From NCBI GenBank assembly GCA_049516875.1, contig JBEKSS010000009.1:62833-126832 (forward strand): a stretch of 64,000 nucleotides of DNA, in the 5' to 3' direction. Positions 50,292 through 64,000 of the stretch are shown here, one piece after another. Numbering within the stretch: the stretch's first letter is position 1; each line of letters opens with the position of its first letter. Origin of the DNA: Candidatus Bathyarchaeia archaeon. Its GTDB lineage: Archaea > Thermoproteota > Bathyarchaeia > Bathyarchaeales > Bathycorpusculaceae. The notes below the pieces were generated by a model. The model worked only from the letters and a program-made list of their open reading frames with translations. It was not told the DNA's origin and ran no database searches. The position numbers were made by a program, and so were the translations under genes.

Positions 50292-53200
50292 ATGTCAAAC
50301 ACATCTAGCGTCGATGCAATCCTGACTGAGGCTAACATAAAAGAAAAAGAGTATAATTGGCTAGGCGCGGCTGAGACTTACGCGAAAGGATTGGACTCAA
50401 TATCAGCACAGAACTTCTCAAGCTCAGGCGATCTTCACGAGCGTTTAGGCTATGCCTTTCGCAAAGCAGCGATGCAGGCCGAAGATGTGAACGAGTTCAA
50501 GAACAGTATGAACAAGGCTGCTGTTCACTATGGTAAGGCTCTTGAGGCTTATGAAAGGATCAGTGACTCTGAGACGGCGAACGCCAAAGGTCTTCGATGT
50601 GATGCTGCCAAAGCTTACGTTGAGCATTGGTTGGCGTCTGACAGTTTTGAAAAGAAGAAATGGTTGGATGAATGTTGGAAGCTCGCAACTGGGAGTATGC
50701 GAACATTCGAAAAGGGAGAGGAACGAAGTGAATTTGTGAAAACATACGTCCAACTTTCAGACGCAGCGATTTTTCTGTTTACTCGCGAACCCGATTTCAA
50801 ATCCCGCGAAAAGGTAATACAAGAGGCAGTGGAGTCAGGCGAGAAGGCAATAGAATTCCTCTCAACTTCGGGAGATGCTTGCCAACTTGCGATGGCTTAC
50901 GCGCGAACCGTTGTTTTTCTAGGAGTTTTCAGCTATAACTTCAGAGACATTAATGAAAGGGAGAAATATCGACAGGAAGGCCTCAACTATTGGGGCAAGG
51001 CCAAGCAGCTTTCTGAAGAAATAGCGATGACCGAGTCTGTGTACCCTGTTTTTGGAGGCCAAGTTTTCTTCGGCTTGGAAGGCGCCGACGAAGCGTTTGA
51101 AAACTGTACGAAAGCATTAGAGTACGGCAGAAAGATGAATGACAAGTTCATTATCGGTTGCGCATTAGATTGGCTCGTCTACCACACTGCCTGGAAGCTT
51201 CCGGGAACCGATGATCCAGTTGAGAAAGAACGCGCCATTGAAAGGTGTCTGAAATATGCAGAGGAATCACTGTGCGAGCTCAGCAAGGTGCCCTTCGTAA
51301 GCCCCCGCGGCGATCTTGCCTGGACCAAATCAATTGAAACCATGCGTCTCCTTCTTCAACATGACGTTGAGACTGATCTGAAGAAAAAAAGAGTCTTAGA
51401 TGAAGAGGCTTTCCAGTGGGGTCTGCGCAATCGAAAAATGTGGGAAGAATCTGGTTATCCGGAAATCATGATGAGTTGGTATGGTGGGGCAGCCATGCTT
51501 CGCCAAAGGCTCGCCAAATTCGAAACAGACCCTGCGGATAGAAAAAAAGGTCTTGAAGAAGCCCTCGCTTACATAAATAAAGCCATAGGAATTCAAGAGG
51601 GACTTGTCCCCCTTCAATACTGGAACATTGGTATCTCGCGAAGTTCGTTGGGAAACGTAGAATCTGAACTCGCTGAAGTGACCGAGGACTCGGAGAAAAA
51701 GAAGGCTTTGCTTAGAGCCGCACTGGCCGACAAGCAGAAAGCCATAGAATTGTGCATCAGAGAATTGACGTACATGACGAAGAAAGGCTCGGGAACCTCT
51801 CTCTTCGCAACCGTAGGAGCACTGCAATATGGATATGCACACGCCCTTGTCCGTTTGTACGAGTTAACGGGCGAAAAGGAGCTTTTGAAAAAAGCGGTAC
51901 AGAGTTATGACGCTTCAACCGAATCCTATCAAAAGCTCAGCTTGATGAGTAGAATAGCGGAGAATTGTTGGAGAAGAGCACAAGTATATGACAAGCTTGG
52001 AGAGCATTTGGCAGCCTCTCAGGATTTTGAGTGCGCAGCACGGAGCTACGCTTCGGCATTAGAGAAGTTCCCACAGCTCAAAGCCTTCTACAATGACCAC
52101 GCCCTGTACATGCAGGCTTGGAGCGAAATTGAAAAAGCAAGATTTCACCATCAGAAACAAGAATATAACCTGGCAGAAGAGCATTTTGACAAAGCCGCCG
52201 GTCTTCACAAATCTTTGAAACGATGGAACTATCTCGCACCAAACTATTCCGCTTGGGCAAAGCTTGACGAAGCAGAAGAACTGAGCAGAAAAGAGAACAG
52301 TGAAGAAGCTCTTCAGGCCTTCGAAACAGCTTCTGCGCTTTTGGAGGAAACCAGTAAGTCTCTGGAGAACCAGTTGCCAACGATCGAGGACGCCGAGGAA
52401 AAAGAGATGGCAGCAGAAATGTTGAAGGCTACAGGCCTGAGACATCAATACTGCGCAGCACGAGTCGCAGTTGAAGAAGCCAAGATCTTTGACAAGAAGG
52501 GAGATCACTTGTCAAGCTCCGAGAAGTACAGTTCGGCAGCTGAAATCCTTGAGGGTATACAGGAGGCTGTAGAAACAGAGCGGGACAAAAAGGAGTTCAA
52601 ACTTATCGCAACACTCTCTCAAGCTTGGGCAAAGATGACGTTGGCTGAAGCCGAGGAATCGCCAGGTTTGTACGCGGAAGCATCTCAGCTCTTTGAGAAG
52701 GCCAAAGAACTGAGCCCTAACGAGAAAGCAAAGACGCTAGCTTTAGGACACAGTCGCTTCTGCAGAGCACTTGAAGCTGGAATGGAATTTTCCGACACGG
52801 CGGACGAAAAACTCCACAATATCGCCGTTCAGCAATTGGAAAGCGCTGCAAAATACTACGTGAAAGCTGGCATTCAGAGCGCTTCGGAATATGCCAAAGC
52901 AACCGAGCTGCTTCTAGACGCTTACTCAAACATCAACAACGCAAAGAAAGAAGCTGACCCTGAAAGAAAAACAAAACTGTTTGCGATGGCCCAAAAAATC
53001 CTACAAACTTCCGCGGGCTCTTTCATGAAAGCTGAACATCCAGAAAAGAGAGAGCAGGTTCTGAGACTCCTTGACAAAGTGAAAGAAGAACAAGAATTGG
53101 CTATGTCCCTCAGTGAGGTATTACACACTCCTGCAATTGTCTCTACAACAACCGCATTCAGTACGCCTACTCCGAATCATGAGAATGCAGTGGGTATTGA

Positions 53201-53606
53201 GAAGTTTGAGAACGCCAACATACAGGCAAACATTATTTCCCGCCAAAAACAGCTAAACGTGGGTGAAAATTTGGACTTAGAGATAGAGCTCGTCAATGCA
53301 GGAAAAGGGCCTGCGCTGTTGATCAAAATCACCGAGCTCATTCCGAAAGGCTTCGAATTGGCTGAAAATCCCGAAGCCTACAGAGTGGAGGACAGCTACT
53401 TGAACATGAAGGGAAAACGAGTTGACCCCTTGAAGACCGTAGAAGTGAAGCTTAAGCTCAAGCCGAAAGTTCAAGGCGAGTTCTCACTCAAACCCACGGT
53501 ACTGTATCTCGACGAAAATGGACAGTACAAGTCAAATCAGCCTGAGCCGCTGACTTTAACGGTCACGGAGCTTGGAATCAAGGGCTGGCTCAAAGGAGAA
53601 AGATGA
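50292..53606 (+). CDS. Large TPR-like helical repeat protein with C-terminal Ig-like domain
   Basis: About 1000 aa of Ala-rich helical repeats; C-terminal L.VGE...LEIELVNAGK...PTVLY. Confidence 0.8.
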   Translation: MSNTSSVDAILTEANIKEKEYNWLGAAETYAKGLDSISAQNFSSSGDLHERLGYAFRKAAMQAEDVNEFKNSMNKAAVHYGKALEAYERISDSETANAKGLRCDAAKAYVEHWLASDSFEKKKWLDECWKLATGSMRTFEKGEERSEFVKTYVQLSDAAIFLFTREPDFKSREKVIQEAVESGEKAIEFLSTSGDACQLAMAYARTVVFLGVFSYNFRDINEREKYRQEGLNYWGKAKQLSEEIAMTESVYPVFGGQVFFGLEGADEAFENCTKALEYGRKMNDKFIIGCALDWLVYHTAWKLPGTDDPVEKERAIERCLKYAEESLCELSKVPFVSPRGDLAWTKSIETMRLLLQHDVETDLKKKRVLDEEAFQWGLRNRKMWEESGYPEIMMSWYGGAAMLRQRLAKFETDPADRKKGLEEALAYINKAIGIQEGLVPLQYWNIGISRSSLGNVESELAEVTEDSEKKKALLRAALADKQKAIELCIRELTYMTKKGSGTSLFATVGALQYGYAHALVRLYELTGEKELLKKAVQSYDASTESYQKLSLMSRIAENCWRRAQVYDKLGEHLAASQDFECAARSYASALEKFPQLKAFYNDHALYMQAWSEIEKARFHHQKQEYNLAEEHFDKAAGLHKSLKRWNYLAPNYSAWAKLDEAEELSRKENSEEALQAFETASALLEETSKSLENQLPTIEDAEEKEMAAEMLKATGLRHQYCAARVAVEEAKIFDKKGDHLSSSEKYSSAAEILEGIQEAVETERDKKEFKLIATLSQAWAKMTLAEAEESPGLYAEASQLFEKAKELSPNEKAKTLALGHSRFCRALEAGMEFSDTADEKLHNIAVQQLESAAKYYVKAGIQSASEYAKATELLLDAYSNINNAKKEADPERKTKLFAMAQKILQTSAGSFMKAEHPEKREQVLRLLDKVKEEQELAMSLSEVLHTPAIVSTTTAFSTPTPNHENAVGIEKFENANIQANIISRQKQLNVGENLDLEIELVNAGKGPALLIKITELIPKGFELAENPEAYRVEDSYLNMKGKRVDPLKTVEVKLKLKPKVQGEFSLKPTVLYLDENGQYKSNQPEPLTLTVTELGIKGWLKGER

Positions 53607-53742
53607 CCGAAAACTAGTTTTGCGGAATCTGAGGGCGCGCTATTCCTTCACACTCTGCGATCGCGCTAAGCGCGCGCGTGATAAACAACACTTTTAAGTT
53701 ATTTGATGCTAATTAAGAAAGCAATTCCGAGTTGTTGAAACC

Positions 53743-54243
53743 ATGAAAATGAGAATGATAAAACTACGCCCTGAATTCCTCATAGAAACATTGCAGGGAA
53801 AAGCATCTTTCACTTCCAACCTGCCAGACAATATTGAACTATTAGATATTAAGTACGACTTTTTTTCCAAGCAAGTATCAGCAATCATAAGAAGCGACAG
53901 TTTTGAAGACGTTGTAGAATCCTATCCACCTCCAGAATTCAATGTCATCTATACGACAAACCCCAAAGCCGAATCTCAGCCCACAACAAACTCCAAACCT
54001 GAATTTAAGCCCACAGAGAAAACGCCGGTTCAGCCAAGTCAAGACACAAGCGCAATAGAAAAAGAATTCAGCCCAGAGCAGCGCAATTTGCTGAGTTTCA
54101 CAGTAGACGGAGAATACGTCACAATAAAGCCAAACCAATACTTGAAGAATGAGTGGGATGAAATTAACGATACTGTGAGAAGTTTAGGTGGTAAATGGAC
54201 GAAAGGCGACAACTTCAGCTATTGGGCAATTCGACGAACTTAG
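53743..54243 (+). CDS. Hypothetical protein
   Basis: 166-aa ORF with upstream TATA-like element; C-terminal LGGKW....SYW domain. Confidence 0.65.
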   Translation: MKMRMIKLRPEFLIETLQGKASFTSNLPDNIELLDIKYDFFSKQVSAIIRSDSFEDVVESYPPPEFNVIYTTNPKAESQPTTNSKPEFKPTEKTPVQPSQDTSAIEKEFSPEQRNLLSFTVDGEYVTIKPNQYLKNEWDEINDTVRSLGGKWTKGDNFSYWAIRRT

Positions 54244-54615
54244 CAAGCATAAAGCAAAGTACACAAGACTAGTTTCTTCAGCTGACCAACTAGCCTTTTT
54301 TTCATCATTCATAGAACTTACGAGATATCCTTTTACCCCTCTCAACGCAACCGCAACTATTTTTTATCTTTCGAATGTTTTGCTGGAAGCGAAACCTGCT
54401 TTTTCTCTTTTCTTTTCAGTTCTTTCTCTCGCTGTAATTTTTTATGCTGCTCTAAACCTGCAGCTTTCTTTTCTTTTCTTGACAAAAGCTCATCAACCTT
54501 AGCAGGCAATAGAAGCATTACGTTACTTCCTGCTATGGCCTGAACCCACTATTCAGCCCTGAAAGTAACTGTTTTTTCCACCACAGCTCCCGTCGTCGTC
54601 AAGGTTGGTTGGTTT

Positions 54616-54636
54616 GGATATAACTTTACCCCCCCC
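54616..54636 (+). repeat. Family B palindromic core adjoining the left end of the Cas1 element
   Basis: GGTTGGTTTGGATATAACTTTACCCCCCCCAA. Confidence 0.7.
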
Positions 54637-54712
54637 AAGAAAACCTGAGCTTGATTCGTGGAGCTCTGAGCTTGGGGGTGACGCGTGCTCGCGATAGAAG
54701 AGCAGAAGTCAG

Positions 54713-54848
54713 CTTGGTATGCGAGCACGCTGTTTCTGCTCGTGGTAACATCTATAGTGCAACTGGTACGTAGTAGTACCGTAAGAACGCTAAGAACGGT
54801 AAGTACGTATATAGGGTACTGCCGAAGGCTAGCTGAAGGCTGAAAAGA
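54713..54848 (+). repeat. Left terminal inverted repeat (visible matched part)
   Basis: 54713-54752 is the exact reverse complement of 63961-64000; 54751-54778 is the exact reverse complement of 63879-63906; TAAGAAC tandem units and AGGCTGAAAAGA are shared further inward. Confidence 0.92.
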
Positions 54849-54860
54849 AGGGTGAAGTGG

Positions 54861-55067
54861 CTAGTCTTTTCTTACGATAAATATGACAAGAACAACGTAC
54901 ATGGCAATGAACAAACCTAAGACTATAGTGCCGCCAAGTGCTTGGTCTTGAGGAATTCCTTTTGGATAAATATAGGCTTCGTAGCAATCCGTCCAGTAGT
55001 TGCCTAAAATACCTAACACCACACCCAACGAGAAAAGCAAGATTTCTTTTAGGCTGTTTTTAGGCAT
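54861..55067 (-). CDS. Small two-TM membrane protein
   Basis: 68 aa with two hydrophobic helices; inside the element. Confidence 0.55.
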   Translation of the reverse strand: MPKNSLKEILLFSLGVVLGILGNYWTDCYEAYIYPKGIPQDQALGGTIVLGLFIAMYVVLVIFIVRKD

Positions 55068-55249
55068 ATTGAGTCAGGAGAACCTAATGCTGAATTACGT
55101 ATTATCTCTTACTATTGAAACGCAAGATGAGAAAAACAAAGGTCTAATATTTTTCTATTTCTAGTCATAATTCAGAAACGGAGCCTTCCTAAGGCACGGA
55201 ATAAGGTTAAAGTAGTCCAATAGCCTTTATTAGCTAGGAGGAGGCTAGA

Positions 55250-56275
55250 ATGAAGAGTAAAACCACGAAGATAGCCCTAGAAGGCTTCGGATCGTACTTG
55301 GGAATGCAAAGAGGCTCTTTCGTAGTCCGAGACAAGGACGGAAAAGAAGAGAGGTATCCATTGTTTGAGAGTGAGATAGGAGAAGTGCGTATCAGGAGCG
55401 GTAATACCGTAAGTGCAGGAGCGTTAGCAAGTATCGGGTTCTGGCAGATAGATTGTCTGCTCCTGAGCGGTAGAGGTCGTCCGATAGCGATCCTCAGGTC
55501 TCTAGATGACGACAGTCACGTTTCGACTAGAATAGCCCAGTACGAGTCCTTAAAGAACGGCAAGTTTTCGGATATAGCCAAGCAATTCGTCTTATCAAAA
55601 ATAGAAGGACAGAATGAGCTTCTGAAGAAGTACGGTCTTAGACGATTAGACTATTCTCACATCGAGAAGATCAAGAGTATTCAGGAGAGCGATATTCGAG
55701 CGTTAAGAGTCAAGCTTACAAATATAGAAAGCCATTGTTCAAGGCTCTATTTCAACCAAGTGTTCGGAATGTTCTCAGAGTTGTTGAGACCTAGCGGTAG
55801 AAAAGCATTCAAAGCCTACGATGGAATAAACAACCTCTTCAACTTGGCATACGAGGTTCTCTCTTGGAAGGTTCATCTTGCTCTCCTTAAAGCGAGACTA
55901 GAACCATTTCTAGGCTACTTGCACAGTCTGGCTTGGAGTAAGCCTTCTCTTGTGTGCGATTTCAAAGAGCTTTATCGGTACTTGATGGACGACTTCGTTA
56001 TCCAGTACGCTAAGAAACTGGGGCCCAGAGACTTTATCTTGAAGACAGAAGAATATGCGAACCGCAAGGGAAAGCGAGAATACATCAACGACCTTAAGAC
56101 TAGAGGCTTTATGAAAATGCTTGATGACTGCTTTCTTTCTGAAGTTGAGGTTCCTAGAGTTAGAATAGGCAAGAAACAAGAACTGGAGACGCTGATAAAC
56201 GAAGAGGCTCTGCTGTTCGCTAGCTATCTGAGGAATGAAAAACAGACGTGGATTCCTCGGACAGTGGAACTATGA
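55250..56275 (+). CDS. cas1: Solo Cas1 integrase (putative casposase)
   Basis: G.YLG, TRIAQY, SKIEGQ, IESHCSRLYF (Glu), NNLFNLAY, PFLGYLH (His), SLVCDFKELYR (Asp/Glu); GGAGG RBS; no cas2 or array nearby. Confidence 0.92.
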   Translation: MKSKTTKIALEGFGSYLGMQRGSFVVRDKDGKEERYPLFESEIGEVRIRSGNTVSAGALASIGFWQIDCLLLSGRGRPIAILRSLDDDSHVSTRIAQYESLKNGKFSDIAKQFVLSKIEGQNELLKKYGLRRLDYSHIEKIKSIQESDIRALRVKLTNIESHCSRLYFNQVFGMFSELLRPSGRKAFKAYDGINNLFNLAYEVLSWKVHLALLKARLEPFLGYLHSLAWSKPSLVCDFKELYRYLMDDFVIQYAKKLGPRDFILKTEEYANRKGKREYINDLKTRGFMKMLDDCFLSEVEVPRVRIGKKQELETLINEEALLFASYLRNEKQTWIPRTVEL

Positions 56276-56613
56276 GGCTAGTTCCTTCCAGAAAAGTCTG
56301 TGAGAAGTTCTGGATTACCTACGACTTTAAAGGTTGCCAGAAGGCTGTAGACTTTCTAACTCGGCACTACGGAATAAGAAGGATGAAGATCGTACTAGAC
56401 GGCAAGAAAGTGCACAAGAAGAGTTGGTTAGCCTGTTACTACTACGACCAGCATACCGCTTACTTTAAGAAGAGAGGCTTGACCAAACGTTACGTTCTGC
56501 ATGAACTTTACCATCACATCGTAAACGCGAAAGGTCTTGAAACATCTTCAAGAGAAGAAGAAAAACAAGCTAGCGCGTATTCTTGCAATTTTGCAAGAAA
56601 GGCTAGAGGCTAA
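56272..56613 (+). CDS. Small zincin-like (HExxH) metallopeptidase, translationally coupled to cas1
   Basis: VLHELYHH...EEEKQA; ATGA overlap with the cas1 stop. Confidence 0.7.
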   Translation: MRLVPSRKVCEKFWITYDFKGCQKAVDFLTRHYGIRRMKIVLDGKKVHKKSWLACYYYDQHTAYFKKRGLTKRYVLHELYHHIVNAKGLETSSREEEKQASAYSCNFARKARG

Positions 56614-56712
56614 GGAGAACAAGAATTAGAGACGCTGATAAACGAGCGCGCGCGCACGCTTTCTGGAAAATTTTAAATTGAGTTTCGCACCTAATGGGAA
56701 GTGGGTGGAAGT

Positions 56713-57195
56713 ATGGTCGAGTTGCCCAACTGGGAGAAAATAGTCGTGCCTCAACGTCATGGCACAGGATGCGTGCCAACTGGTTATGAATGGATGTTGC
56801 GGTATTTAGGCACCAAAGGCGTAAACTTCGATACTTTTCAGGAGGATTTCGACCTTCAATACTCTGGCGAAGGTAAGAACAATTTTCAAGATGTGGCACG
56901 AAAGGTGAAAACAACATATCCCGATGTTAACATCAGTATCAAATCCTTCGATATTGGCAAGGAGAAGCTCGAATTTATTGCCACCTTAGTCAGCAATGCT
57001 GTTCCTTGTTTGTTATCAGTGGCAAAAACACCAGTGGGAGGAGACTGGCATATTGTTCCAGTCGTCTCAATCGATGACACATCGGTCAAGGTTATTTGGA
57101 CAGGCAATCAAACTACGATGTTTGCGAAAACCGAAATAATCCATCGGCACGACAATTGGCCAGGCGGAAAAGATATCGCTTGGATTGAACGATGA
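56713..57195 (+). CDS. Papain-fold (C39-like) cysteine peptidase
   Basis: PQ.....C motif (QRHGTGC) and WHIVPVV.ID. Confidence 0.6.
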   Translation: MVELPNWEKIVVPQRHGTGCVPTGYEWMLRYLGTKGVNFDTFQEDFDLQYSGEGKNNFQDVARKVKTTYPDVNISIKSFDIGKEKLEFIATLVSNAVPCLLSVAKTPVGGDWHIVPVVSIDDTSVKVIWTGNQTTMFAKTEIIHRHDNWPGGKDIAWIER

Positions 57196-57252
57196 GATGC
57201 GAAACAAAAAAAGAGAGCGCGCGCGCCATATCTCTCTCGCGCGCTTCTTATT

Positions 57253-57942
57253 TCACCCTTTCTTGCTCATTATTTGCTTGTAAAGCTCTTTTGTAATTAT
57301 CCCGTTTTCGTAAGCCAGTTTGGCGTTCTCAGGAAGATGTTCCGAAAATGCCTTTGACAGGTTTTCAAGTACAGGAATCACGGAATCTTGAGCTTGTTTC
57401 AATATTTTTTTAGGGACATCTACGATAGTTCGACACACAGGCTCTATTTTCTTTTTATACCCTTCAGCGTATTCGAGCCAGTACTTGGCATCCTTACGCT
57501 TCATGTCAGATGGAGACAACCATCTTCCCTTTCGATAGTCAACATATAGACCTTGCAGTCTTAGGTTCCATATCTCTCCAGCAAGGGAATCGACATCTCT
57601 CTCCATTTCCTCGAAGTCTTTGACATCTAGAGGTCTATCGGGTTTCTGAGGTCCTTTTTCTATTGCCCTTCCAATGAACTCCATAATCTGCACACCCATA
57701 AACGCGTCAAGCTTTGCGCTATGCTGATTCACACGGTTAAGCTCGTCAGGTTTCGAAGACTCGATTCTGGACAGAGCATACATGAAGGCTTTGCTTGTTT
57801 CCTCAATTGCAGAATAAGCTAGGAATACTGAGTGCCCATAACTCCTTCGACGAAACAATATTTCGGCATCTTCGATAAGCTTATTGACGTTATCAAAACA
57901 CAACTCTACTCCTTTCTTCAACTTACTCTTAGGGACTTCCAT
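57253..57942 (-). CDS. abiV: AbiV-family (HEPN) abortive infection protein
   Basis: N...LIEDAEIL....SYG.S.FLA..AIEE..K, H..K, R..GLYVD......SP. Confidence 0.8.
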   Translation of the reverse strand: MEVPKSKLKKGVELCFDNVNKLIEDAEILFRRRSYGHSVFLAYSAIEETSKAFMYALSRIESSKPDELNRVNQHSAKLDAFMGVQIMEFIGRAIEKGPQKPDRPLDVKDFEEMERDVDSLAGEIWNLRLQGLYVDYRKGRWLSPSDMKRKDAKYWLEYAEGYKKKIEPVCRTIVDVPKKILKQAQDSVIPVLENLSKAFSEHLPENAKLAYENGIITKELYKQIMSKKG

Positions 57943-58141
57943 AGCGATTATTCCCCGAAGTTATTGGTGAAACTATCCATAAAAGACTTCGCGCGCTGAG
58001 GACTATTGTCTGAGAAAAGACCGTGAAAGACAAAGGACCAGATTCACTTTAACCTCAGACTCTCTCTATTCCTCTGGAATGTTGTATTGACAAACTCTTT
58101 TTAACCTTTCATAACAGCCGCCTATTTTGTGGCGAACAAGA

Positions 58142-58327
58142 ATGGCGAACCCTTTGTCCGATTGTTGCTTGACAAGACTCTGTGACATGTGCGGCAAATA
58201 CATTCAGGGAGCAAACTACCATTGCCCAAAATGCGATATTTGCATTTGCTTCGGTTGTGGAGTGAGAATGCAGAGCAAAGAGAATTATCCGCTTAAATGC
58301 CCAATGTGCGACGAGAAACTTCAATAG
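58142..58327 (+). CDS. Small Cys-rich zinc-finger protein
   Basis: CDMC, CPKC, CFGC, CPMC. Confidence 0.65.
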   Translation: MANPLSDCCLTRLCDMCGKYIQGANYHCPKCDICICFGCGVRMQSKENYPLKCPMCDEKLQ

Positions 58328-58359
58328 CGCGCGCTTGGAGACTGGCTGTTCACATCCGT

Positions 58360-59388
58360 TTAACCTTTGCGTGGAAAGAGGTAAGCCACGACCGCAACTA
58401 CAACACTCACAATCAAGGCAATGTCTTTCCAGTGTTCGTCTAGGAATTTCCTTGCGGATTTCTTGGAGGGCAATGCGATTGCTTGGCGGTAGAAACTTCT
58501 CTTGGACTCTTGAATGGACTCATCTATGAGGGGTCTGTTCTCTGTGGTGGCAACTTCAAGGCCAGTGCTGGCTACAAACCACTTCAGCAAAGTCTCGCCA
58601 ATTGTCTTGATTTCCTTAGGATCCGGTCTCATTGGAATATCATTTACTACCGAATGCATGACCAAGACTCCATCTGTTCTACCATCTGCTGGTCGGAGGA
58701 GGAATTGCAGGACAGATTTCTTGTTTCCGTAGGTTTTGACAAAGTATAGGCTATTTGACGTTTTTCTGCTTAGTGTTAGGTTAAAATCTTCTTCGAGCTT
58801 CTTCAGTTGCTCCATTACTATGTTCACATCAGCATTTGCAGTAAAACTCATCGCAGAACCGTTCAGCACAAGTCGGTACCCACACTTTTTGACAATTGGA
58901 ATAGCGAGGGCAACAGAAAATGCGACAAGGAAGCCTAAGAAAACTGAAACTCCTAGTGCGGAGCTTATCCTCTCATTGCTTTGATAAGTTGTAAATGCTG
59001 TGTGCGTTGGGTCGAAGTAAAGAATCATGGTTTCAAAGAACATGAAAGAAAAAACGTAAATGCGCAAGCCATCGATTGTAAAGCGCGGGGCTCTAATCCA
59101 CAAAGCTGGAGGAAAAGCGGAGATGAGCGGAATGACAAAAAGCGTAGATATGCCAGTTTCTCCAAAGGACAGCGAAGTTGAGCTGAAGATGTATGCAAGG
59201 AAATAAATTAGGCACGCAATCGCCAGTCCATATGCTAAGCCAAAACTGATAGAAAATAAGCGATGGTGCGAGAAAAGCCAGTTTGACTTTTGCAATTGCA
59301 GTTTTTCCTCTAGATTAATTTTCTCTTCTTTAAGAATCTTCACTTCCTCTTTGATGCTGTCCATGTCGTCTTTATTCTTATCTTTCAA
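58360..59388 (-). CDS. Membrane protein (coiled coil + about 4 TM + soluble domain + C-terminal TM)
   Basis: Hydrophobicity pattern; long ORF. Confidence 0.7.
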   Translation of the reverse strand: MKDKNKDDMDSIKEEVKILKEEKINLEEKLQLQKSNWLFSHHRLFSISFGLAYGLAIACLIYFLAYIFSSTSLSFGETGISTLFVIPLISAFPPALWIRAPRFTIDGLRIYVFSFMFFETMILYFDPTHTAFTTYQSNERISSALGVSVFLGFLVAFSVALAIPIVKKCGYRLVLNGSAMSFTANADVNIVMEQLKKLEEDFNLTLSRKTSNSLYFVKTYGNKKSVLQFLLRPADGRTDGVLVMHSVVNDIPMRPDPKEIKTIGETLLKWFVASTGLEVATTENRPLIDESIQESKRSFYRQAIALPSKKSARKFLDEHWKDIALIVSVVVAVVAYLFPRKG

Positions 59389-59545
59389 ATTTTATCACTT
59401 CTGATTCTTGTTTCTGTCAGGAACGATACTATCTTGCTGGAATTGCGCTGAATAAACCTATTTTGCAAACGCCCTTCATATCTGTAGTTTGAATCTTGCT
59501 TATTTAGACTTGTGCTGGCACATGCTGAATAATTGCTAGCGCGCG

Positions 59546-59656
59546 CTTATTCGAATCCAAAAGCGTCGATTAATGTGACGGTCGGGAGAAAGTTATCGGC
59601 ATACCAGCCGTCGTTAAGGCTCTTGGTCGTGCCAAGGGTGATATTGCCGAAGTCCA
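59546..59656 (-). pseudogene. Start-less 3' gene fragment between two GCGCGCGC sites
   Basis: Reads LDFGNITLGTTKSLNDGWYADNFLPTVTLIDAFGFE*. Confidence 0.4.
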
Positions 59657-59694
59657 GCGCGCGCCAGTATTCATTAAACGTTAGAGTGCGCGCA

Positions 59695-60261
59695 CTATTC
59701 GTGGTTACTTTGATTCTGTGATTCCTTCTCTTTCTCCTTCTTGATCTTTCGAATCATGGCTCTCTTTTCAAAGAACCTTTCAATTCTTGAATTTTTTAAG
59801 TAATTAGAAATCGCACGACCATCGCTCTTTGCTTCCGCCATAACTGGACGGATTTCCTCGCGTAGTTCGTCTGGTACATCCTCAAGAGTAAATTCCTCTT
59901 TTTTATCAGGCACTGCTACGCCCATTATTGTTCTTGTTGGTGGCTCAGGTTTTGGCTGAATCGCTTTCACAGCGTTCCGTATTTTTTCAGTCGTGCTCTT
60001 CTTAGGCTGATGCTTCTTATCTTCCATTTCTTGACGCACCTCGTCTTCCAGAATCTCTTTTCTTGACCTATGCTTGTTTCTCTCTTCCTGTTCGTACTTC
60101 TCTTTCAAGTCAAGCATTTCTCTGGAAGCTCGCACTCCGCTACTCGCTCTCGGCAATTTCGCTTTACGGTATTGTTGGCTTTCGTCGTCAATTATGAAAG
60201 ATTTTCCAATCTGGCGGGAAGTTCCATGCGTTCGCTTTCTCCATTTCCGTTTATGAGACAT
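59695..60261 (-). CDS. Basic/charged hypothetical protein (element core operon)
   Basis: Co-directional overlapping operon; ends at GCGCGC 59688. Confidence 0.6.
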   Translation of the reverse strand: MSHKRKWRKRTHGTSRQIGKSFIIDDESQQYRKAKLPRASSGVRASREMLDLKEKYEQEERNKHRSRKEILEDEVRQEMEDKKHQPKKSTTEKIRNAVKAIQPKPEPPTRTIMGVAVPDKKEEFTLEDVPDELREEIRPVMAEAKSDGRAISNYLKNSRIERFFEKRAMIRKIKKEKEKESQNQSNHE

Positions 60262-60493
60262 ACTTCATGTTCTCCTTGTTCTTTATTCTCGTGCGTTCTA
60301 GCCTACGCCTTTCTTTATGCATTTTATCGTCCGTTTCAAGTTGAGCAAAAGCGACCTTAATGTTAGGTGGTTCATTCTCTTTCTCTTGCAAATGTCCGAC
60401 TTCACGAGATAACACAACCAGCACTTTATCCACTCTTTTTGAATCTCGTTCTAGCTGAGCTAGACGCTCCGCTACAGTCTTTCGTTTGTGCAT
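60251..60493 (-). CDS. Small coiled-coil hypothetical protein
   Basis: GGAG RBS; overlaps its neighbour. Confidence 0.5.
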   Translation of the reverse strand: MHKRKTVAERLAQLERDSKRVDKVLVVLSREVGHLQEKENEPPNIKVAFAQLETDDKMHKERRRLERTRIKNKENMKYVS

Positions 60494-60512
60494 TTAGAAA
60501 ACACTCCTTTGT

Positions 60513-60773
60513 CTAGGTGATTACGTTTACCACTTTTACGTCGCCAACTATAGCGAGAACTCTGCGTATTTCTTCTTGCCAGTAAGCACGAAAGCCTACG
60601 AAATTAGTGTCAAGCTCAGGAATACGTCTAACCTTTATCTTTATGATTGCAAAAACAGCAACCATTTCCGTAGGTGGTGGTTGGTTATGTTCGGTATTCC
60701 GAGATTGCAATTCGTTCAGTTCGACTCGTTCACCTTTCTTTTCATTTTCAGCAACCATTTTACGCACCTCCTT
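60513..60773 (-). CDS. Hypothetical protein (start uncertain, probably near 60760)
   Basis: GGAGG upstream of MVAENE...; part of the operon. Confidence 0.45.
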   Translation of the reverse strand, partial: KEVRKMVAENEKKGERVELNELQSRNTEHNQPPPTEMVAVFAIIKIKVRRIPELDTNFVGFRAYWQEEIRRVLAIVGDVKVVNVIT

Positions 60774-61215
60774 CCGATCCAAGTCTCCGATTATCCGCCC
60801 AAAATGTAGCATATTCCCAACAGCCTTCACTATCGCCATTAGGAATGTACTTGTAAAAGACTGGATAGCTCTTTTTGCGGTTCTTCAGGTTAATCCTTTC
60901 CTCTATCGTTCCGTACTTCCGCATCCAAACGAATTTCTTGTTCACGAGTCCAGCTTTTAGAACGTTTTCCAGATGGCAGAGAATCTCTTGCCAAGAGAGA
61001 TGCTTTCCGAATATGCTTGTAAAATTGGCTAGACGGTTTCCATCTAGGTCAAGTTGATAAGGCTCGCTACTTTTCATTATCAGAACGCTCCCGATATTGT
61101 AAAATCTTGAGTATTTTTTGCAATATTCTACAAGATAGGACGGTAACGCCAAGTCACTATCCAACATGAGGAATCTGTCTGTGCTCCAGCCTACAATCGG
61201 ATATCCTTCGTTCAT
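60760..61215 (-). CDS. Possible small AEP (primase-polymerase)-like protein
   Basis: hhhDhD (FLMLDSD), KSS...N.hhF and distal R.. K; the expected His is absent. Confidence 0.4.
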   Translation of the reverse strand: MNEGYPIVGWSTDRFLMLDSDLALPSYLVEYCKKYSRFYNIGSVLIMKSSEPYQLDLDGNRLANFTSIFGKHLSWQEILCHLENVLKAGLVNKKFVWMRKYGTIEERINLKNRKKSYPVFYKYIPNGDSEGCWEYATFWADNRRLGSEGGA

Positions 61216-61228
61216 TCACCCCACCCCC

Positions 61229-61570
61229 TCAAGAAGGTACGCTAACATCATAATTCTCTACTCTTCTGATCCTAACCCAATCAGTTCCTCCAAGAAGAAC
61301 TGCAAAGTCTGGATAAGCCTCGCCTTTTACGTGGACAGGCATTTGATGATCTTCTTTCATTTTTGAACAGACTATTCTTATGTATGTAGCAAGAAGCTTA
61401 CGGTCACGCCACAGCTTTTCACTAATCTTCACTTTGTACTCGAAGCCTCTTAATCCACCGTTTGCATCTCTGTATCTTCCGTAGAACCTAACGTACCTTC
61501 GAGAAGTCTTGACTTTAATTCTCCTGCGGAGAGGAAGTGGTTTAAACTCTGGAATGTTTCTTCCTCGCAT
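61229..61570 (-). CDS. Basic hypothetical protein
   Basis: Arg/Lys-rich; GGGGGT RBS. Confidence 0.55.
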   Translation of the reverse strand: MRGRNIPEFKPLPLRRRIKVKTSRRYVRFYGRYRDANGGLRGFEYKVKISEKLWRDRKLLATYIRIVCSKMKEDHQMPVHVKGEAYPDFAVLLGGTDWVRIRRVENYDVSVPS

Positions 61571-61940
61571 ACTCAACCCCCCCACTCAAAGCTTCTAACA
61601 GCTTTGTCTGACGTTTCTCTTCATGGAGAATTTCGTAAAGGACTTCCACTACGTCCTTATCCTTAGCAGAAGCCATATCCTCTTCTAGAGCCTTCTTCAC
61701 AGGCTTGGAGAATTTCTGTTTAAGTTGCAATACTCCTGTTCTTCTATTAGGATCAGCCTCATCATCTAACTCTTGTAATTTGGCTAGAATTTCTCTACGT
61801 TCTTCTGGAGACTTTGTATGCTCTAGTCTCATACGAAGATCATGTCTCTTATGACAACGAAGCATTATCACTCTACTACGTTCTTTCTGCTCTTTTTCAG
61901 CTTCACTATGATGAAGCGGAATACTATCTGGTAAGCTCAT
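61542..61940 (-). CDS. Coiled-coil hypothetical protein
   Basis: GGAGTGA RBS; part of the operon. Confidence 0.55.
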   Translation of the reverse strand: MSLPDSIPLHHSEAEKEQKERSRVIMLRCHKRHDLRMRLEHTKSPEERREILAKLQELDDEADPNRRTGVLQLKQKFSKPVKKALEEDMASAKDKDVVEVLYEILHEEKRQTKLLEALSGGVEYARKKHSRV

Positions 61941-61946
61941 TTTTCA

Positions 61947-62186
61947 TCACTCCTTTTTGTTCTTTCTCGAAATATTCAAAACAGTGCGTAGACCCATAGC
62001 TTTGTTGATGTCAGCGAGCAAGTATTCGCTTATTTCTACTATCACTTTTCTTCCAAGCTTATCACATCCAATCCTCTTCTTGGCAGTTATAGTAACCCAG
62101 TTGCAATTGCTAATCGACTCTTCCTCTTCCTTTTCTTCTGGTGGGTCAACTTTCACTATTTTGTATGATGCTCCATTTATTCGCAT
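61947..62186 (-). CDS. Small hypothetical protein (possible AbrB-like beta fold)
   Basis: GAGGTG RBS before MRINGASY; ITAKKRIG..KLGRKV. Confidence 0.45.
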   Translation of the reverse strand: MRINGASYKIVKVDPPEEKEEEESISNCNWVTITAKKRIGCDKLGRKVIVEISEYLLADINKAMGLRTVLNISRKNKKE

Positions 62187-62266
62187 GTTTATCACCTCAC
62201 CTTTTTTTCTTTCCATTCCTTCAGAGCTTCCGCTATCACAACTCGCTTTTTCACAAGTGTTCACCT

Positions 62267-63283
62267 TCAAATTTTAAATGGGATTTTATAGTCAGGATTA
62301 AGCTTGTACTTAAACCAACGGTGAGGAGTTTTCCGTATCTCTATTATAGCACCAATTTTTATCAACCTTGAGATACTCTCCCTTACAGTTCCTTCCCAAT
62401 ATCTTCCATGCCATTCCTTCATCATTTCTGAAACGTATATTGATGGTTCTCTCAACTCCTGCCTACTGAAAAGAACACGTATGATGTCTTTATCAATCTC
62501 ACATAACTGAATCTCTTTCTTCTTATACGTGTGTTCAAATATGAATTTCATTGCATTTCCGTTATCTTCAAGTTTTGCAGTAAAAGGCTCTATGTCCAAA
62601 GGAATCCTCCTTTGCACAGGTCGGATATACAATCTCTCAAGATTGGACTTAGCTTTCGATCCTAATACAAAGTAAGTATCAACCTGTTGAAGTATCGCGG
62701 AACTTCCCATGCTCAAATTTCCAATGTTCTCAGTTGACATCATTTCGTCAACGCCTACTATAGACTTTGACGATACGTGATGAAGAAGAATTACCGTCCT
62801 TCCGTTACGTATGACTTGCTCTTTAAATTTCGACAGTACGTTCATATCTTCTGTTGCATTTGGATTCAAGTCTCCGCATACTCTATGCAAGCAATCTATG
62901 ATTATGACTTTAGCCTTTTCACACTTGTTTATCGCACGGACAAGAGAACCGTCGTCAAGATAACACCGCTTAGTCGGTTCAATGTATAGGTTGCATATTT
63001 TCGGTATCTTAATCAACCCTTTGTCTAAAGCCTTGAGCCTTACGATCAAGGTTCTGTCTGGAGTGTCTTGGTCTATGAGCAATACGTTTGACAATAGAGT
63101 TTTCCTTCCCATAAAGTTAGAGCCGCGAATAATGCACTCTGCAAGATACTCTGCCAAGAAAGACTTTCCAACACCTTCTTTTGAAATAAATGCAGTAAGA
63201 GAATCCGCTGGTATTATATCCTTTACCAGAAATCTCTGCGATTTGATAGGCTGATTATGATCAAATGATTCCAAATTTGTCAC
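62267..63283 (-). CDS. AAA_25 / RepA-type (RecA-fold) helicase-like ATPase with C-terminal wHTH
   Basis: Walker A SKEGVGKS, LLIDQD, Walker B IIIDC, LLHH..K, GSSA....VD. Confidence 0.8.
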   Translation of the reverse strand: MTNLESFDHNQPIKSQRFLVKDIIPADSLTAFISKEGVGKSFLAEYLAECIIRGSNFMGRKTLLSNVLLIDQDTPDRTLIVRLKALDKGLIKIPKICNLYIEPTKRCYLDDGSLVRAINKCEKAKVIIIDCLHRVCGDLNPNATEDMNVLSKFKEQVIRNGRTVILLHHVSSKSIVGVDEMMSTENIGNLSMGSSAILQQVDTYFVLGSKAKSNLERLYIRPVQRRIPLDIEPFTAKLEDNGNAMKFIFEHTYKKKEIQLCEIDKDIIRVLFSRQELREPSIYVSEMMKEWHGRYWEGTVRESISRLIKIGAIIEIRKTPHRWFKYKLNPDYKIPFKI

Positions 63284-63336
63284 TACCTTATTCTTTTGTG
63301 AAGAGACTTAAGTCAAGTATTACAAAATCTGCAATA

Positions 63337-63525
63337 TTATCTGATGTCAATACCGTTCCGCTTTACGTCTTTTGAGACTACGTCCATAATGTAGCTAGAC
63401 CGAGACAAGAATCCTCTTCTCTTCTTGACTCTATCTACAGCCCTCAATTCTCTAAGGCTCATAGCCACACTAATCGGTATCTTTATGTCTACTGGATTTT
63501 CCTCACGAATGAACCGTTTTTTCAT
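63337..63525 (-). CDS. Ribbon-helix-helix (CopG-like) DNA-binding protein
   Basis: ISVAMS..EL..VD.......SRSSYI; GGAGG RBS; first gene of the operon. Confidence 0.7.
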   Translation of the reverse strand: MKKRFIREENPVDIKIPISVAMSLRELRAVDRVKKRRGFLSRSSYIMDVVSKDVKRNGIDIR

Positions 63526-63805
63526 TTTTCAAAACCTCCGAAAAATTCTCCCTGCGATTCAGGGTCTCCCCCTTAGAAACTTTTAGGCTCGGCTTCTTTC
63601 TCGCCGAGCGAGTCTCTATACTACAGAGGGGGATACTAACTAATAAGCCCTTCCGATATACCTAGAGATATACTCCATTAAACTCGTTTTTGGCACTTGC
63701 GTAGGAAAATGCCTTCTAAGACTCGCCAAGAACGCTAAGGAATAAAAAACTTCGACCTTGAAAGCCGTTTTGAAGCCTCTTTTCCGAAATCCAGCCTTTT
63801 CCTAT

Positions 63806-64000
63806 CTTTTCAGCCTACCCTCCTACTCTATATAGATCCAACATTACCTTAGGGTTCTTAGGGTTCTTAGCTCCCGACTACTACTACGTACCAGTTGCAC
63901 TATAGAGTACTGATCATAGTGCTAAAGCTTACTGCTAAGCCTTCTCTACGCTGCTGCTCGGATGTTACCACGAGCAGAAACAGCGTGCTCGCATACCAAG
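63806..64000 (-). repeat. Right terminal inverted repeat (truncated by window end)
   Basis: Exact 40-bp and 28-bp inverted matches to the left end, separated by an extra 54 bp (63907-63960). Confidence 0.9.

Follow-up and report, generated by a model that had tools for sequence, protein, structure and literature searches.

The right-hand end of a 64,000-nucleotide stretch of Bathyarchaeia DNA (hereafter the window) carries a 9,456-bp element that we interpret, with a probability of roughly 0.85, as a casposon that is mobilised by its Cas1 and lacks a family B DNA polymerase (PolB). The element occupies window positions 54629–64000 plus 84 nt beyond the contig end, encloses an intact cas1 between terminal inverted repeats (TIRs), and is flanked by a short target-site duplication (TSD). 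Casposons are the preferred candidates for the origin of CRISPR adaptation, and their defining feature has been a Cas1 paired with a family B polymerase. An original prediction, made from the sequence alone, had described a PolB-less, casposon-like element in which a solo Cas1, a RepA-like helicase, and genes resembling archaeo-eukaryotic primases (AEP) and ribbon-helix-helix (RHH) proteins lie between long inverted repeats.

The window corresponds to positions 62833–126832 of contig C9 (126,832 bases) of the source genome G000, a bin of 20 contigs. It was compared with 401 genomes of the class (G numbers), fetched loci (L numbers) and public sequencing runs (X1–X4). Gene neighbourhoods were examined in 24 loci, comprising the window, L012–L014 and 20 full-length cas1 copies, each with 20 kb fetched.

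Imperfect inverted repeats and a target-site duplication bound the element

Both exact inverted matches reported in the original prediction were recovered at 100% identity, one of 40 nt (54713–54752/63961–64000) and one of 28 nt (54751–54778/63879–63906), compared with a longest chance exact inverted repeat of 18 nt (mean 14) in 100 first-order Markov simulations of window 52000–64000. The arms themselves proved longer than these matches (~223 nt) and are imperfect; relative to the left arm, the right one has an insert of 56 nt (about 63905–63960). Since the window ends where contig C9 ends, the right arm is truncated by the assembly, and no other contig of the 20-contig bin contained any part of the inverted repeat.

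The outer part of the right arm was present in Logan contigs of four runs from four studies (X1–X4; peat and wetland metagenomes), which were placed on window 53500–64000. In all four runs a 206-nt contig followed 63879–64000 and then ran on the opposite strand via 54712 to 54629; the joint was placed at 64000/54712 (side of 84) in X1–X3, and the same joint at 54752/63960 (side of 82) in X4. The 84 nt missing from the right arm are the reverse complement of 54629–54712, and the inverted repeat has its outer limit at exactly 54629. A continuation of the contig followed by a TSD had been predicted: the first 39 of the 84 nt read as foreseen, and an 11-nt duplication was found. A 28-nt loose end before 54629, identical in four of four runs, gave the right flank, which on the plus strand reads ATATAACTTTACCCCCACCCAAGGCAAT, while the left flank ends in ...GGTTTGGATATAACTTTA at 54628. 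The 11-nt word ATATAACTTTA abuts both ends of the element in direct orientation, its left copy (54618–54628) and its right copy forming the TSD; on a 13-bp reading the left duplication is GGATATAACTTTA, starting at 54616.

Sequencing depth of the repeat contig was about twice that of the rest in every run (309.9 vs. 161–162 in X4, 373 vs. about 200 in X2, 35.2 vs. 23–27 in X3 and 13.4 vs. 6–7 in X1), and the interior, contiguous over 55513–63908, had the same depth as the flank. These values fit one integrated copy with two arms and give no sign of a free form, in contig data that are blind to rare variants. The left junction (window 54300–55300) was represented by 73–92% of sampled words in six runs from six studies of wetland and peat metagenomes dated 2017–2020.

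Neither a tRNA nor an Rfam family was found at the insertion site. In the same-genus genome G402, homology with the left flank of the element stops at 54612, and the DNA that follows there is absent from G000. The 28-nt right flank occurred on no other contig of the bin, and the right-hand neighbour of the element was not found there. Past 54612, G402 (C4:5740) and a contig of X4 carry a box that is close to the reverse complement of the box duplicated in the window, an arrangement that might represent a rearranged empty site. Immediately to the left of the element lies a non-coding segment of ~95 nt (54523–54617), conserved in relatives and present as an 86% identical copy at C8:3184–3278 of G000; it contains a stem-like inverted repeat, behind which comes a run of T, and had no Rfam match. 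An extra insert of ~75 nt was seen exactly at 54523 in G402 and in contigs of X2–X4.

The Cas1 belongs to a large family set apart from array-linked Cas1 proteins of its class

The assignment to Cas1 was confirmed with Pfam (PF01867, E = 6.7e-37). The catalytic Glu, His and acidic residues named in the original prediction held up across 17 aligned family members, in which E160, H225 and D237 were invariant and E240 was conserved in 90% or more; these members also share a distinctive C-terminal tail. Among NCBIfam models the protein passed only the generic TIGR00287 (125.5 bits vs. a cut-off of 71.7), and all seven subtype models scored far under their cut-offs. Compared with solved structures, it matched a casposase (6opm, E = 5.1e-9) no better than a CRISPR Cas1 (4n06, E = 3.4e-12).

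The closest records came from Bathyarchaeia metagenome-assembled genomes, namely L012 (90% identity), L013 (86%) and L014 (66%, a truncated gene). At E ≤ 1e-10 there were matches in 126 of the 401 class genomes, a count that takes in CRISPR-type Cas1s of about 30% identity. Outside G000, 39 rows covered at least 270 of the 341 residues at 45–62% identity. Genomes G135, G396, G202 and G262 held three full-length copies each, and many more rows were pseudogenes or C-terminal fragments. A large protein collection yielded 1,983 clusters at E ≤ 1e-30, the best 120 of which were all at least 59% identical. Elsewhere in G000 there were six cas1 fragments, mostly C-terminal, at 44–65% identity (Table 1), and similar 3' fragments lay near intact copies in L013, L060, L070 and L072. 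Judging by their sequences, these scattered fragments look like the remains of decayed or recombined elements.

No Cas2 or Cas4 gene was found beside cas1 in any of the 24 loci. CRISPR-like arrays were likewise absent from all 24. As a control, the same k-mer scan was applied to 20 other Cas1 genes of the class, fetched with only 3 kb per side, and it detected arrays beside seven of them. A Cas1 of CRISPR adaptation has an adjacent cas2, often cas4, and an array, and scores with a subtype model; the Cas1 of the window shows neither property. In a maximum-likelihood tree of 37 sequences, a branch of length 1.5 with 100/100 support split off the 17 family members together with a long-branched outlier (L108), leaving on its opposite side all 19 other Cas1s, including all seven that were array-linked. 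The expectation that this Cas1 stands outside the CRISPR clade was thereby borne out with respect to the array-linked Cas1s of the same class. Inside the family, the window and L013 were sister to the PolB-bearing L055 (99/95), and L086 grouped with L067 and L063.

By eye, this family resembles one already in the literature. A 2022 study (PMC9755687) presented 10 solo Cas1s from hot springs and proposed six of them as 'family 5' casposases, placed next to the subtype I-A Cas1. In the passages of that study available to us, one family-5 contig carried PolB, several had TIRs, the neighbouring genes were 'hypothetical' and the authors suggested non-self-replicative transposons; its supplement gives a Cas1 length of 343.17 ± 7.05 aa. 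The Cas1 of the window agrees with that group in length (341 vs. ~343 aa), in a context mostly without DNA polymerase, in TIRs and in archaeal hosts (Thermoproteota/Crenarchaeota), as far as those passages go. Compared by eye rather than by a computed alignment, ~58 of the first 100 residues of the published Cas1_938 are those of the window Cas1, with the same C-terminal tail; over the first 100 residues Cas1_938 and Cas1_1200 both agree with it at ~55–60%, and both share its C-terminal tail. The Cas1s of L066 and L068 are closer still to the published protein. On this match by eye the element would be an integrated casposon copy of the published, little-studied 'family 5' type, and the 'distinct class' of the original prediction had in that sense been proposed before.

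Two further loci deserve description. At C1:351000–361200 of G000 (L015, 8000–18400), a family-5 cas1 fragment occurs with a 766-aa PolB and a Rad51/KaiC-like gene, and the same region holds cas2, cas4, a toxin-antitoxin-like pair and a CRISPR-type cas1 truncated to 140 aa. The region may combine the decayed remnants of an adaptation module and of a PolB-bearing casposon; the k-mer scan saw no CRISPR array in the whole G000 assembly. In L014, a complete Bathyarchaeota chromosome, the cas1 is truncated at residue 145 and lies 9 kb from a tyrosine integrase (776–1723 and 10034–10600), and its N-terminal half is absent within 10 kb.

Most TIR-bounded relatives carry 13–15-bp duplications on an A/T-rich box

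Among the 23 other loci as first fetched, TIRs enclosed cas1 in seven (L054, L063, L064, L066, L067, L068 and L069), with TIRs of 30–271 nt at 88–100% identity and elements of 3.9–6.4 kb; longer DNA added L086 and L055, giving nine TIR-bounded relatives in all. PolB was found in one of the 23 loci, L055, and in one of the nine. Near-perfect TIRs occurred in PolB-less elements (271 nt at 100% in L067, 90 nt at 99% in L054). A script for the longest shared word detected direct repeats of 13–15 nt at the boundaries of six of the seven first-fetched elements, a length that random window pairs of the same locus reached in at most 0.3% of 2,000 trials. With a 13-bp duplication each in L086 and L055 (an element of G202), clear duplications of 13–15 bp were present in eight of nine. 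The exception, L069, failed the duplication test, and both of its ends bear a palindromic box that reads alike either way. The combination of near-perfect TIRs and clean TSDs in elements without PolB suggests recent movement without PolB in cis.

All of the duplications sit on an A/T-rich, TATA-like, partly palindromic box, for example CTTAAATTTTAAC, and the C-rich TIR starts just inside it. Canonical casposons target the ends of tRNA or EF-2 genes, whereas the target here is this A/T-rich box. The possibility that the box is part of the TIR or a host promoter was dropped, the boxes being exact as direct repeats and mismatched as inverted repeats. Other candidate TIRs were also excluded, namely the inverted pairs of 18–38 nt in L013, which surround host-like genes, an 853-nt pair at 78% in L014, which represents two glycosyltransferase paralogues, and a 17-nt pair in L061 (E = 0.02). 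In four genomes of the same genus, only the cas1 segment (65–90% identity) and a multi-copy zinc-finger gene matched the element, and the rest of it was not found.

A relative of the same architecture was L086 (993–15048; genome G262, from a different archaeal family), a complete 14.06-kb element whose TIRs comprise stretches of 52 nt (98% identity) and 36 nt (94%). Its gene order is that of the window: cas1, an HExxH gene and cargo (a PLD-like protein and an Eco57I/MmeI-type methylase), and then, on the other strand, the AEP-like gene, a 118-aa gene and the helicase, with proteins 35–52% identical to those of the window. Its duplication, GTTAAAATTTAAC, is present on both sides and is exact as a direct repeat, with a central mismatch as an inverted one; the script's own window gave 11 of its 13 nt, and all 13 were read from the printed ends. 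No integrase or other recombinase was found among the open reading frames (ORFs) of L086. The predicted neighbourhood of Cas1, HExxH, AAA_25 and TIRs is accordingly kept in L086, although the helicase that it includes was restricted to two of the 401 genomes. L055 is a 27.4-kb element with PolB, a perfect 169-nt TIR and the 13-bp duplication GGCTAAATTTTAA, and its TIR start, CCCCCCCCCTAAAAC, is close to that of the window, CCCCCCCCAAGAAAAC.

A miniature AEP-like protein is the commonest partner of Cas1

Ten of the 24 loci contained the DxD protein of the leftward operon (hereafter the mini-AEP) with E < 1e-15 (the window, L053, L054, L056, L057, L058, L061, L065, L066 and L068; split in L061 and L068). 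This is a minimum figure, given that the DNA fetched for most loci reached only 4 kb upstream of cas1. It also occurred in L086 and, weakly, in the PolB element L055 (E = 2e-6), and three of the elements bearing it are only 4.2–4.5 kb long. A word-indexed search with the single protein gave one match. When a profile was run against 1.84 billion representatives, 519 proteins were recovered at E ≤ 1e-3, of which 278 reached E ≤ 1e-10 and 53 reached E ≤ 1e-30; most were 120–240 aa long. The mini-AEP is the commonest partner of Cas1 in the family and belongs to an uncharacterised family of at least 519 sequence clusters.

Conserved features of the protein are hhhLDxD, ILKSS...YHVVF and TLRVSPK. 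The motif I aspartates, D19 and D21, were at least 90% conserved in 71 sequences and lie at the end of strand 17–23 of an AlphaFold2 model built from the same 71 sequences (pLDDT 94.9, pTM 0.89). When the model was compared with 48,161 chains using VIA-align, the top row was 2atz (HP0184 of Helicobacter, not named a primase; Z = 6.2), and the next seven rows were all AEP/PrimPol domains, namely ASFV PrimPol, human PrimPol, phage S-2L PrimPol, Pol alpha-primase, the LigD polymerase domain, MPXV E5 and RepB' (Z = 5.2–6.0). Twelve of the 71 members had a match to the AEP-like family PF24387 (E ≤ 0.01, best 3.5e-7), and other families recurred in at most three. The AEP-like nature proposed for the DxD protein in the original prediction is in line with both results, and with moderate confidence we regard the 151-aa protein, from its sequence and predicted fold, as a miniature and divergent AEP domain.

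Several results count against that assignment. All Z scores for the mini-AEP were under 8, a range in which a common arrangement alone can explain a match. Foldseek returned no match at E ≤ 1e-3, its best being ASFV PrimPol in the PDB (E = 0.033) and, in a viral library, a protein of a Pyrobaculum filamentous virus (E = 0.0096), with viral primases ranking next. The window's own copy had no Pfam match, and the mini-AEP profile gave matches at chance level only against PDB sequences. Motif II (SxH) is incomplete in the window copy, in which the invariant S50 is retained and the His is replaced; the same replacement was seen in L053, L056 and P0001, the His being present (YHVVF) in the other five of nine rows. 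Furthermore, the mini-AEP was undetected in four of the nine TIR-bounded relatives (L063, L064, L067 and L069) and cannot, for that reason, be essential in cis.

The two gene families found directly upstream of the mini-AEP showed no relationship to each other (hhalign probability 0.3%). G000 contains a second, His-bearing mini-AEP at C2:221084–221551 (L073, 10085–10555), which adjoins a Y-family (IMS/DinB) polymerase gene; no cas1 was annotated within 8.5 kb of it.

A RepA-like helicase is present in two of 401 class genomes

The helicase scored 68.3 bits with the Pfam family AAA_25 (cut-off 27), and its Walker A (G39, K40 and S41) and Walker B (D130) residues were invariant in 12 sequences. 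Its profile matched RSF1010 RepA (1g8y) over residues 17–207 (E = 1.4e-4), and residues 238–324 gave four weak matches to winged-helix domains (E = 0.013–0.074). In the predicted model (pLDDT 84.9) the C-terminal end consists of three helices and two strands. The best Foldseek match was again RepA (1nlf, E = 1e-10, TM-score by target 0.69), followed by DnaB, RadA, T4 gp41, T7 gp4 and Twinkle, and in PHROGs the protein fell with phage primase/helicase families. Profile, model and fold thus agree with the predicted RepA-like helicase with a winged-helix domain. Relative to RSF1010 RepA, its best match by profile and by fold, the protein has an additional C-terminal winged-helix-like domain and lies inside a Cas1 transposon; no origin or Rep initiator was identified with it. 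It showed no similarity to the 309-aa protein that occupies the same position in L053. The original prediction had a distinct class of element use a helicase(-primase) module together with a host polymerase, but such a module is not general in the family: the helicase was found in only two of the 401 class genomes (G000 and G262) and in 11 clusters of the large protein collection, the recurrent partner of Cas1 being the mini-AEP.

Gene content and cargo

Pfam searches of 15 ORFs inside the element detected no PolB, Cas2, Cas4, transposase, or tyrosine or serine recombinase, and the longest ORF inside it is 342 aa (Table 1). There were no CRISPR-like repeats or tandem arrays near the element and no CRISPR-like repeats in the window, and the predicted gene complement (a Cas1 element with TIRs and none of these functions) stood in these respects. 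The three PolB genes, one cas2 (on C1) and one cas4 of G000 are all on contigs other than that of the element. Twelve of the 15 ORFs had no Pfam family at E ≤ 0.001, and 16 of 17 proteins had no match in PHROGs. The predicted gene list had not named the AbiV gene, and its RHH call for the 62-aa ORF gained no Pfam support; AbiV was identified with 87 bits by TIGR04498 (cut-off 27) and 78.9 bits by PF18728 (cut-off 27.1).

Table 1. Features of the element in window coordinates, with cas1 fragments located elsewhere in G000.
Feature	Position	Strand	Remarks
Left target-site duplication copy	54616..54628	.	11 nt ATATAACTTTA certain; 13-bp TSDs in relatives
Left TIR, imperfect	54629..54851	.	starts with C-rich end CCCCCCCCAAGAAAAC
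68-aa hydrophobic ORF	54861..55067	-	weak below-cut-off Pfam match
cas1 (putative 'family 5'-type casposase), 341 aa	55250..56275	+	catalytic E160/H225/D237/E240
Small HExxH protein	56248..56613	+	invariant VLHE.YHHI; likely start at residue 9 (56272)
28-nt direct copy (93%) of cas1 3' end (56175–56202)	56618..56645	+	just behind HExxH gene
164-aa ORF	56701..57195	+	weak Peptidase_C39_2 match, E = 0.021, under cut-off
AbiV-family HEPN abortive-infection protein	57253..57942	-	PF18728 E = 5.9e-22; PADLOC AbiV
66-aa zinc-finger protein, multi-copy	58127..58327	+	copies on C11 and in same-genus genomes
342-aa predicted membrane protein	58360..59388	-	longest ORF inside element
Three small ORFs (188, 80 and 108 aa)	59695..60839	-	distal end of leftward operon
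Mini-AEP (putative), 151 aa	60760..61215	-	DxD D19/D21; S50, R107, K111 conserved; motif II His replaced
118-aa protein	61229..61585	-	directly upstream of mini-AEP in window, L053, L056 and L086
Two small ORFs (132 and 107 aa)	61542..62270	-	
RepA/DnaB-type RecA-fold helicase (AAA_25), C-terminal winged-helix-like domain	62267..63283	-	PF13481 E = 9e-19
62-aa first gene of leftward operon	63337..63525	-	no Pfam family at E up to 1
Right TIR, inner part only	63800..64000	.	outer 84 nt and right TSD copy past contig end
Family-5-type cas1 fragments	C1:353285-353644, C1:45124-45363, C15:4533-4793, C6:105396-105638, C12:6896-7246, C8:19949-20149		

In three elements (the window, L086 and L067) the gene immediately behind cas1 is that of the HExxH protein, with 50–59% identity and an invariant motif; this protein is probably a regulator or partner. 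In an atlas comparison, clusters containing Peptidase_M78 scored 0.93 with 153 shared features, which was below the bar, and an ImmA/IrrE-like peptidase is a lead only. From its sequence, the 28-nt copy of the cas1 3' end behind this gene is probably a recombination scar, left by a swap of cas1 or by insertion of the HExxH gene; this reading fits the tree, in which the Cas1 of the window and that of L086, its sister in architecture, lie in different subclades. A contig of X4 tracks cas1 to 55548 and then continues into 255 nt of unrelated DNA, an alternative arrangement of the 5' part of cas1 in the community.

AbiV, the zinc finger, the membrane protein and the C39-like ORF are cargo. In relatives the cargo included NERD with RelA/SpoT, Mrr with a methylase, type I restriction-modification, PIN and Fic. 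The zinc-finger gene has a 72% identical copy at C11:31318–31491 and DNA matches in three same-genus genomes; this small gene is multi-copy and has a mobility separate from that of the element. Far from the element, window 18348–20152 contains three long tandem arrays with periods of 156, 246 and 234 nt (77–80% matches), which probably belong to a repeat-rich surface protein gene.

Discussion

The casposon superfamily was defined in 2014 by a Cas1 integrase, TIRs, a TSD of ~14–15 bp and an encoded PolB (PMC4046053, in the passages available). The element of the window has a Cas1 with the catalytic residues, TIRs and a TSD of at least 11 bp, and does not encode PolB. As described in parts of PMC4046053 and PMC4779613, canonical casposons of families 1–4 resemble it in their catalytic Cas1, TIRs, short TSD, lack of a CRISPR array and presence in several copies per genome; a 2023 review (PMC9939771) gives, in part of its text, a 15-bp TSD for the A. 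boonei enzyme. In contrast to canonical casposons, there is no PolB in the element or in 22 of 23 related loci, and its Cas1 is shorter than the 431-residue 6opm chain. The passages of PMC9939771 available to us do not mention polymerase-less casposons.

Relative to the published 'family 5', new here are the size of the family, its target and its AEP core gene. The 2022 study covered six sequences, and the TSD, target site, core partner gene and cargo are not reported in its available passages; the present analysis would extend the group to mesophilic peat and wetland Bathyarchaeia at a very large scale and adds the 13-bp TSD on an A/T box, the mini-AEP, the helicase subgroup and the defence cargo. 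No description of an AEP inside a casposon, of the target or TSD of family 5, or of such elements in Bathyarchaeia was found in the literature searched (subscription journals lay outside it). One casposon paper that includes a primase places it, in the part available, in an unrelated co-integrated element.

Several observations weigh against the interpretation of the region as a Cas1-mobilised, PolB-less casposon. The role of Cas1 as transposase is carried over by analogy from canonical casposons. The tree represents one class only, without casposase families 1–4 or other phyla, and its root serves for drawing only; within it, the nearest sampled Cas1 outside the pair formed by the window and L013 is that of L055, which carries PolB. 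The duplication is certain for 11 nt only, and its true length may lie anywhere from 11 to about 18 nt, the full length being ambiguous because G and C runs flank both sides. A clean empty-site allele, which the original prediction had led us to expect, was not found when the left flank was searched in 41 relatives, and both G402 and a co-occurring strain in X4 diverge at 54612 into DNA unrelated to the right flank. The four runs that supplied the right end possibly include the sample that yielded the genome and are thus perhaps not independent. The rarity of the helicase and the divergence and patchy detection of the mini-AEP, described above, belong to the same side of the balance.

The alternative with the best standing, which we nevertheless consider unlikely, is that the element is a casposon that lost PolB secondarily, with the helicase/AEP operon a passenger of plasmid or virus origin and DNA synthesis provided by the host or by PolB-bearing relatives. 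One argument for it is phylogenetic: the Cas1 of the window and L013 is sister (99/95) to that of L055, which has a very similar C-rich TIR start, and on that ground PolB may have been lost secondarily; the 2022 study, in its available passages, likewise had one PolB-bearing member. The absence of the helicase from all but two of 401 genomes and the failure to detect the mini-AEP in four of nine TIR-bounded relatives agree with a passenger, and the 28-nt copy of the cas1 3' end, together with the scattered cas1 3' fragments, indicates that modules have been shuffled by recombination. The proposal that close homologs might all carry PolB, which would have made the element a deletion derivative, was nevertheless not supported at the level of the family, PolB being present in 1 of 23 loci, although the nearest sampled Cas1 does have it. 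PolB-less elements have near-perfect TIRs and clean TSDs, the mini-AEP resides in three elements of 4.2–4.5 kb, where there is scant room for passengers, and the order of AEP, 118-aa gene and helicase has been kept between elements whose proteins are only 35–52% identical.

It is very improbable that the gene is a domesticated or host solo Cas1 in a variable, immobile island, with inverted repeats unrelated to its function. Such a view could appeal to L013, where the cas1 (86%) lies amid ordinary-looking genes (TldD/PmbA, a methyltransferase, flavodoxin and PKD), to the conservation of cas1 alone at the DNA level among the window, L012 and L013, and to the Cas1-solo group 1, regarded as non-mobile in the part of PMC9939771 available. 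It is already contradicted by the TSDs, which accompany eight of nine TIR-bounded relatives (13–15 bp) as well as the window; several copies per genome, decayed copies, a conserved active site and the absence of the element from four same-genus genomes also speak for mobility. Even less credible is a plasmid or provirus integrated by a site-specific recombinase, with cas1 as cargo and the cas1 3' repeats as att-like duplications. The small first ORF, the RepA-like helicase and the AEP module are indeed plasmid- or virus-like, both L013 and the window have cas1 3' fragments downstream of an intact cas1 (28 nt in the window), and a tyrosine integrase lies 9 kb from the truncated cas1 of L014. 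Against this, the ORFs of the window's element and of L086 include no integrase or recombinase, on which account cas1 3' ends were rejected as att sites of an integrase-borne element; inverted-repeat ends with a short target duplication are the signature of a transposase and not of an att pair, and read depth is at the chromosomal level and gives no hint of an additional free form. A fold-back chimera produced by the assembly, suggested by a right arm that ends exactly at the contig end and raised as a caution in the original prediction, can be dismissed, since the same junctions, the 84-nt continuation and a distinct right flank recur in contigs of four runs from four studies and the interior is contiguous over 55513–63908 at flank depth.

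If the element is a PolB-less casposon moved by its Cas1, transposition might proceed as follows. Cas1, acting as a casposase, would bind the C-rich ends of the ~223-bp TIRs and join the TIR 3' ends to staggered positions ~13 bp apart on an A/T-rich, TATA-like, partly palindromic intergenic box, and repair of the two single-strand gaps would produce the TSD. The mini-AEP, with the RepA-type helicase where present, could supply or recruit DNA synthesis in place of PolB, whether by priming, gap filling or copying of the element, while a host polymerase would carry out the bulk of synthesis. A replication role of the AEP/helicase module, suggested by gene linkage, is a tentative proposal to which we give somewhat less than an even chance. 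The nearest functional parallel is provided by the CRISPR-associated primase-polymerases (CAPPs), AEP primase-polymerases that bind Cas1-Cas2 and were proposed to act in gap filling or strand displacement after integration (PMC8211822, in the passages available). In both cases the gene of an AEP-type protein is linked to that of a Cas1 integrase; as described there, CAPPs are larger, lie in CRISPR operons with Cas2 and have demonstrated activity, whereas the protein here is a putative stand-alone AEP domain of 150 aa within a transposon and has weak similarity to them (Z = 4.5 against 7nqd).

More speculatively, and at odds that we would put clearly on the low side, family-5 casposons may constitute a second kind of self-synthesizing Cas1 transposon. 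In such elements the mini-AEP would replace PolB, with the RepA-type helicase helping in one subgroup, and would either close the staggered gaps or replicate the element; the association of Cas1 with a PrimPol in CAPPs would descend from or repeat that state, and the preference for a TATA-like box would keep a promoter box on both sides of the element.

What emerges is a very large archaeal Cas1 family that moves as compact transposons of 4–14 kb (27 kb in one case), almost always without PolB, and that duplicates 13 bp at a target of its own, an A/T-rich palindromic box. Whether Cas1 transposition needs a dedicated polymerase, whether an AEP can substitute for one and how Cas1 picks its target without Cas2 or a leader sequence have become testable questions. 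These elements ferry defence genes (AbiV, restriction-modification, NERD, PIN and Fic) among the Bathyarchaeia, an abundant uncultured group of peat and sediment.

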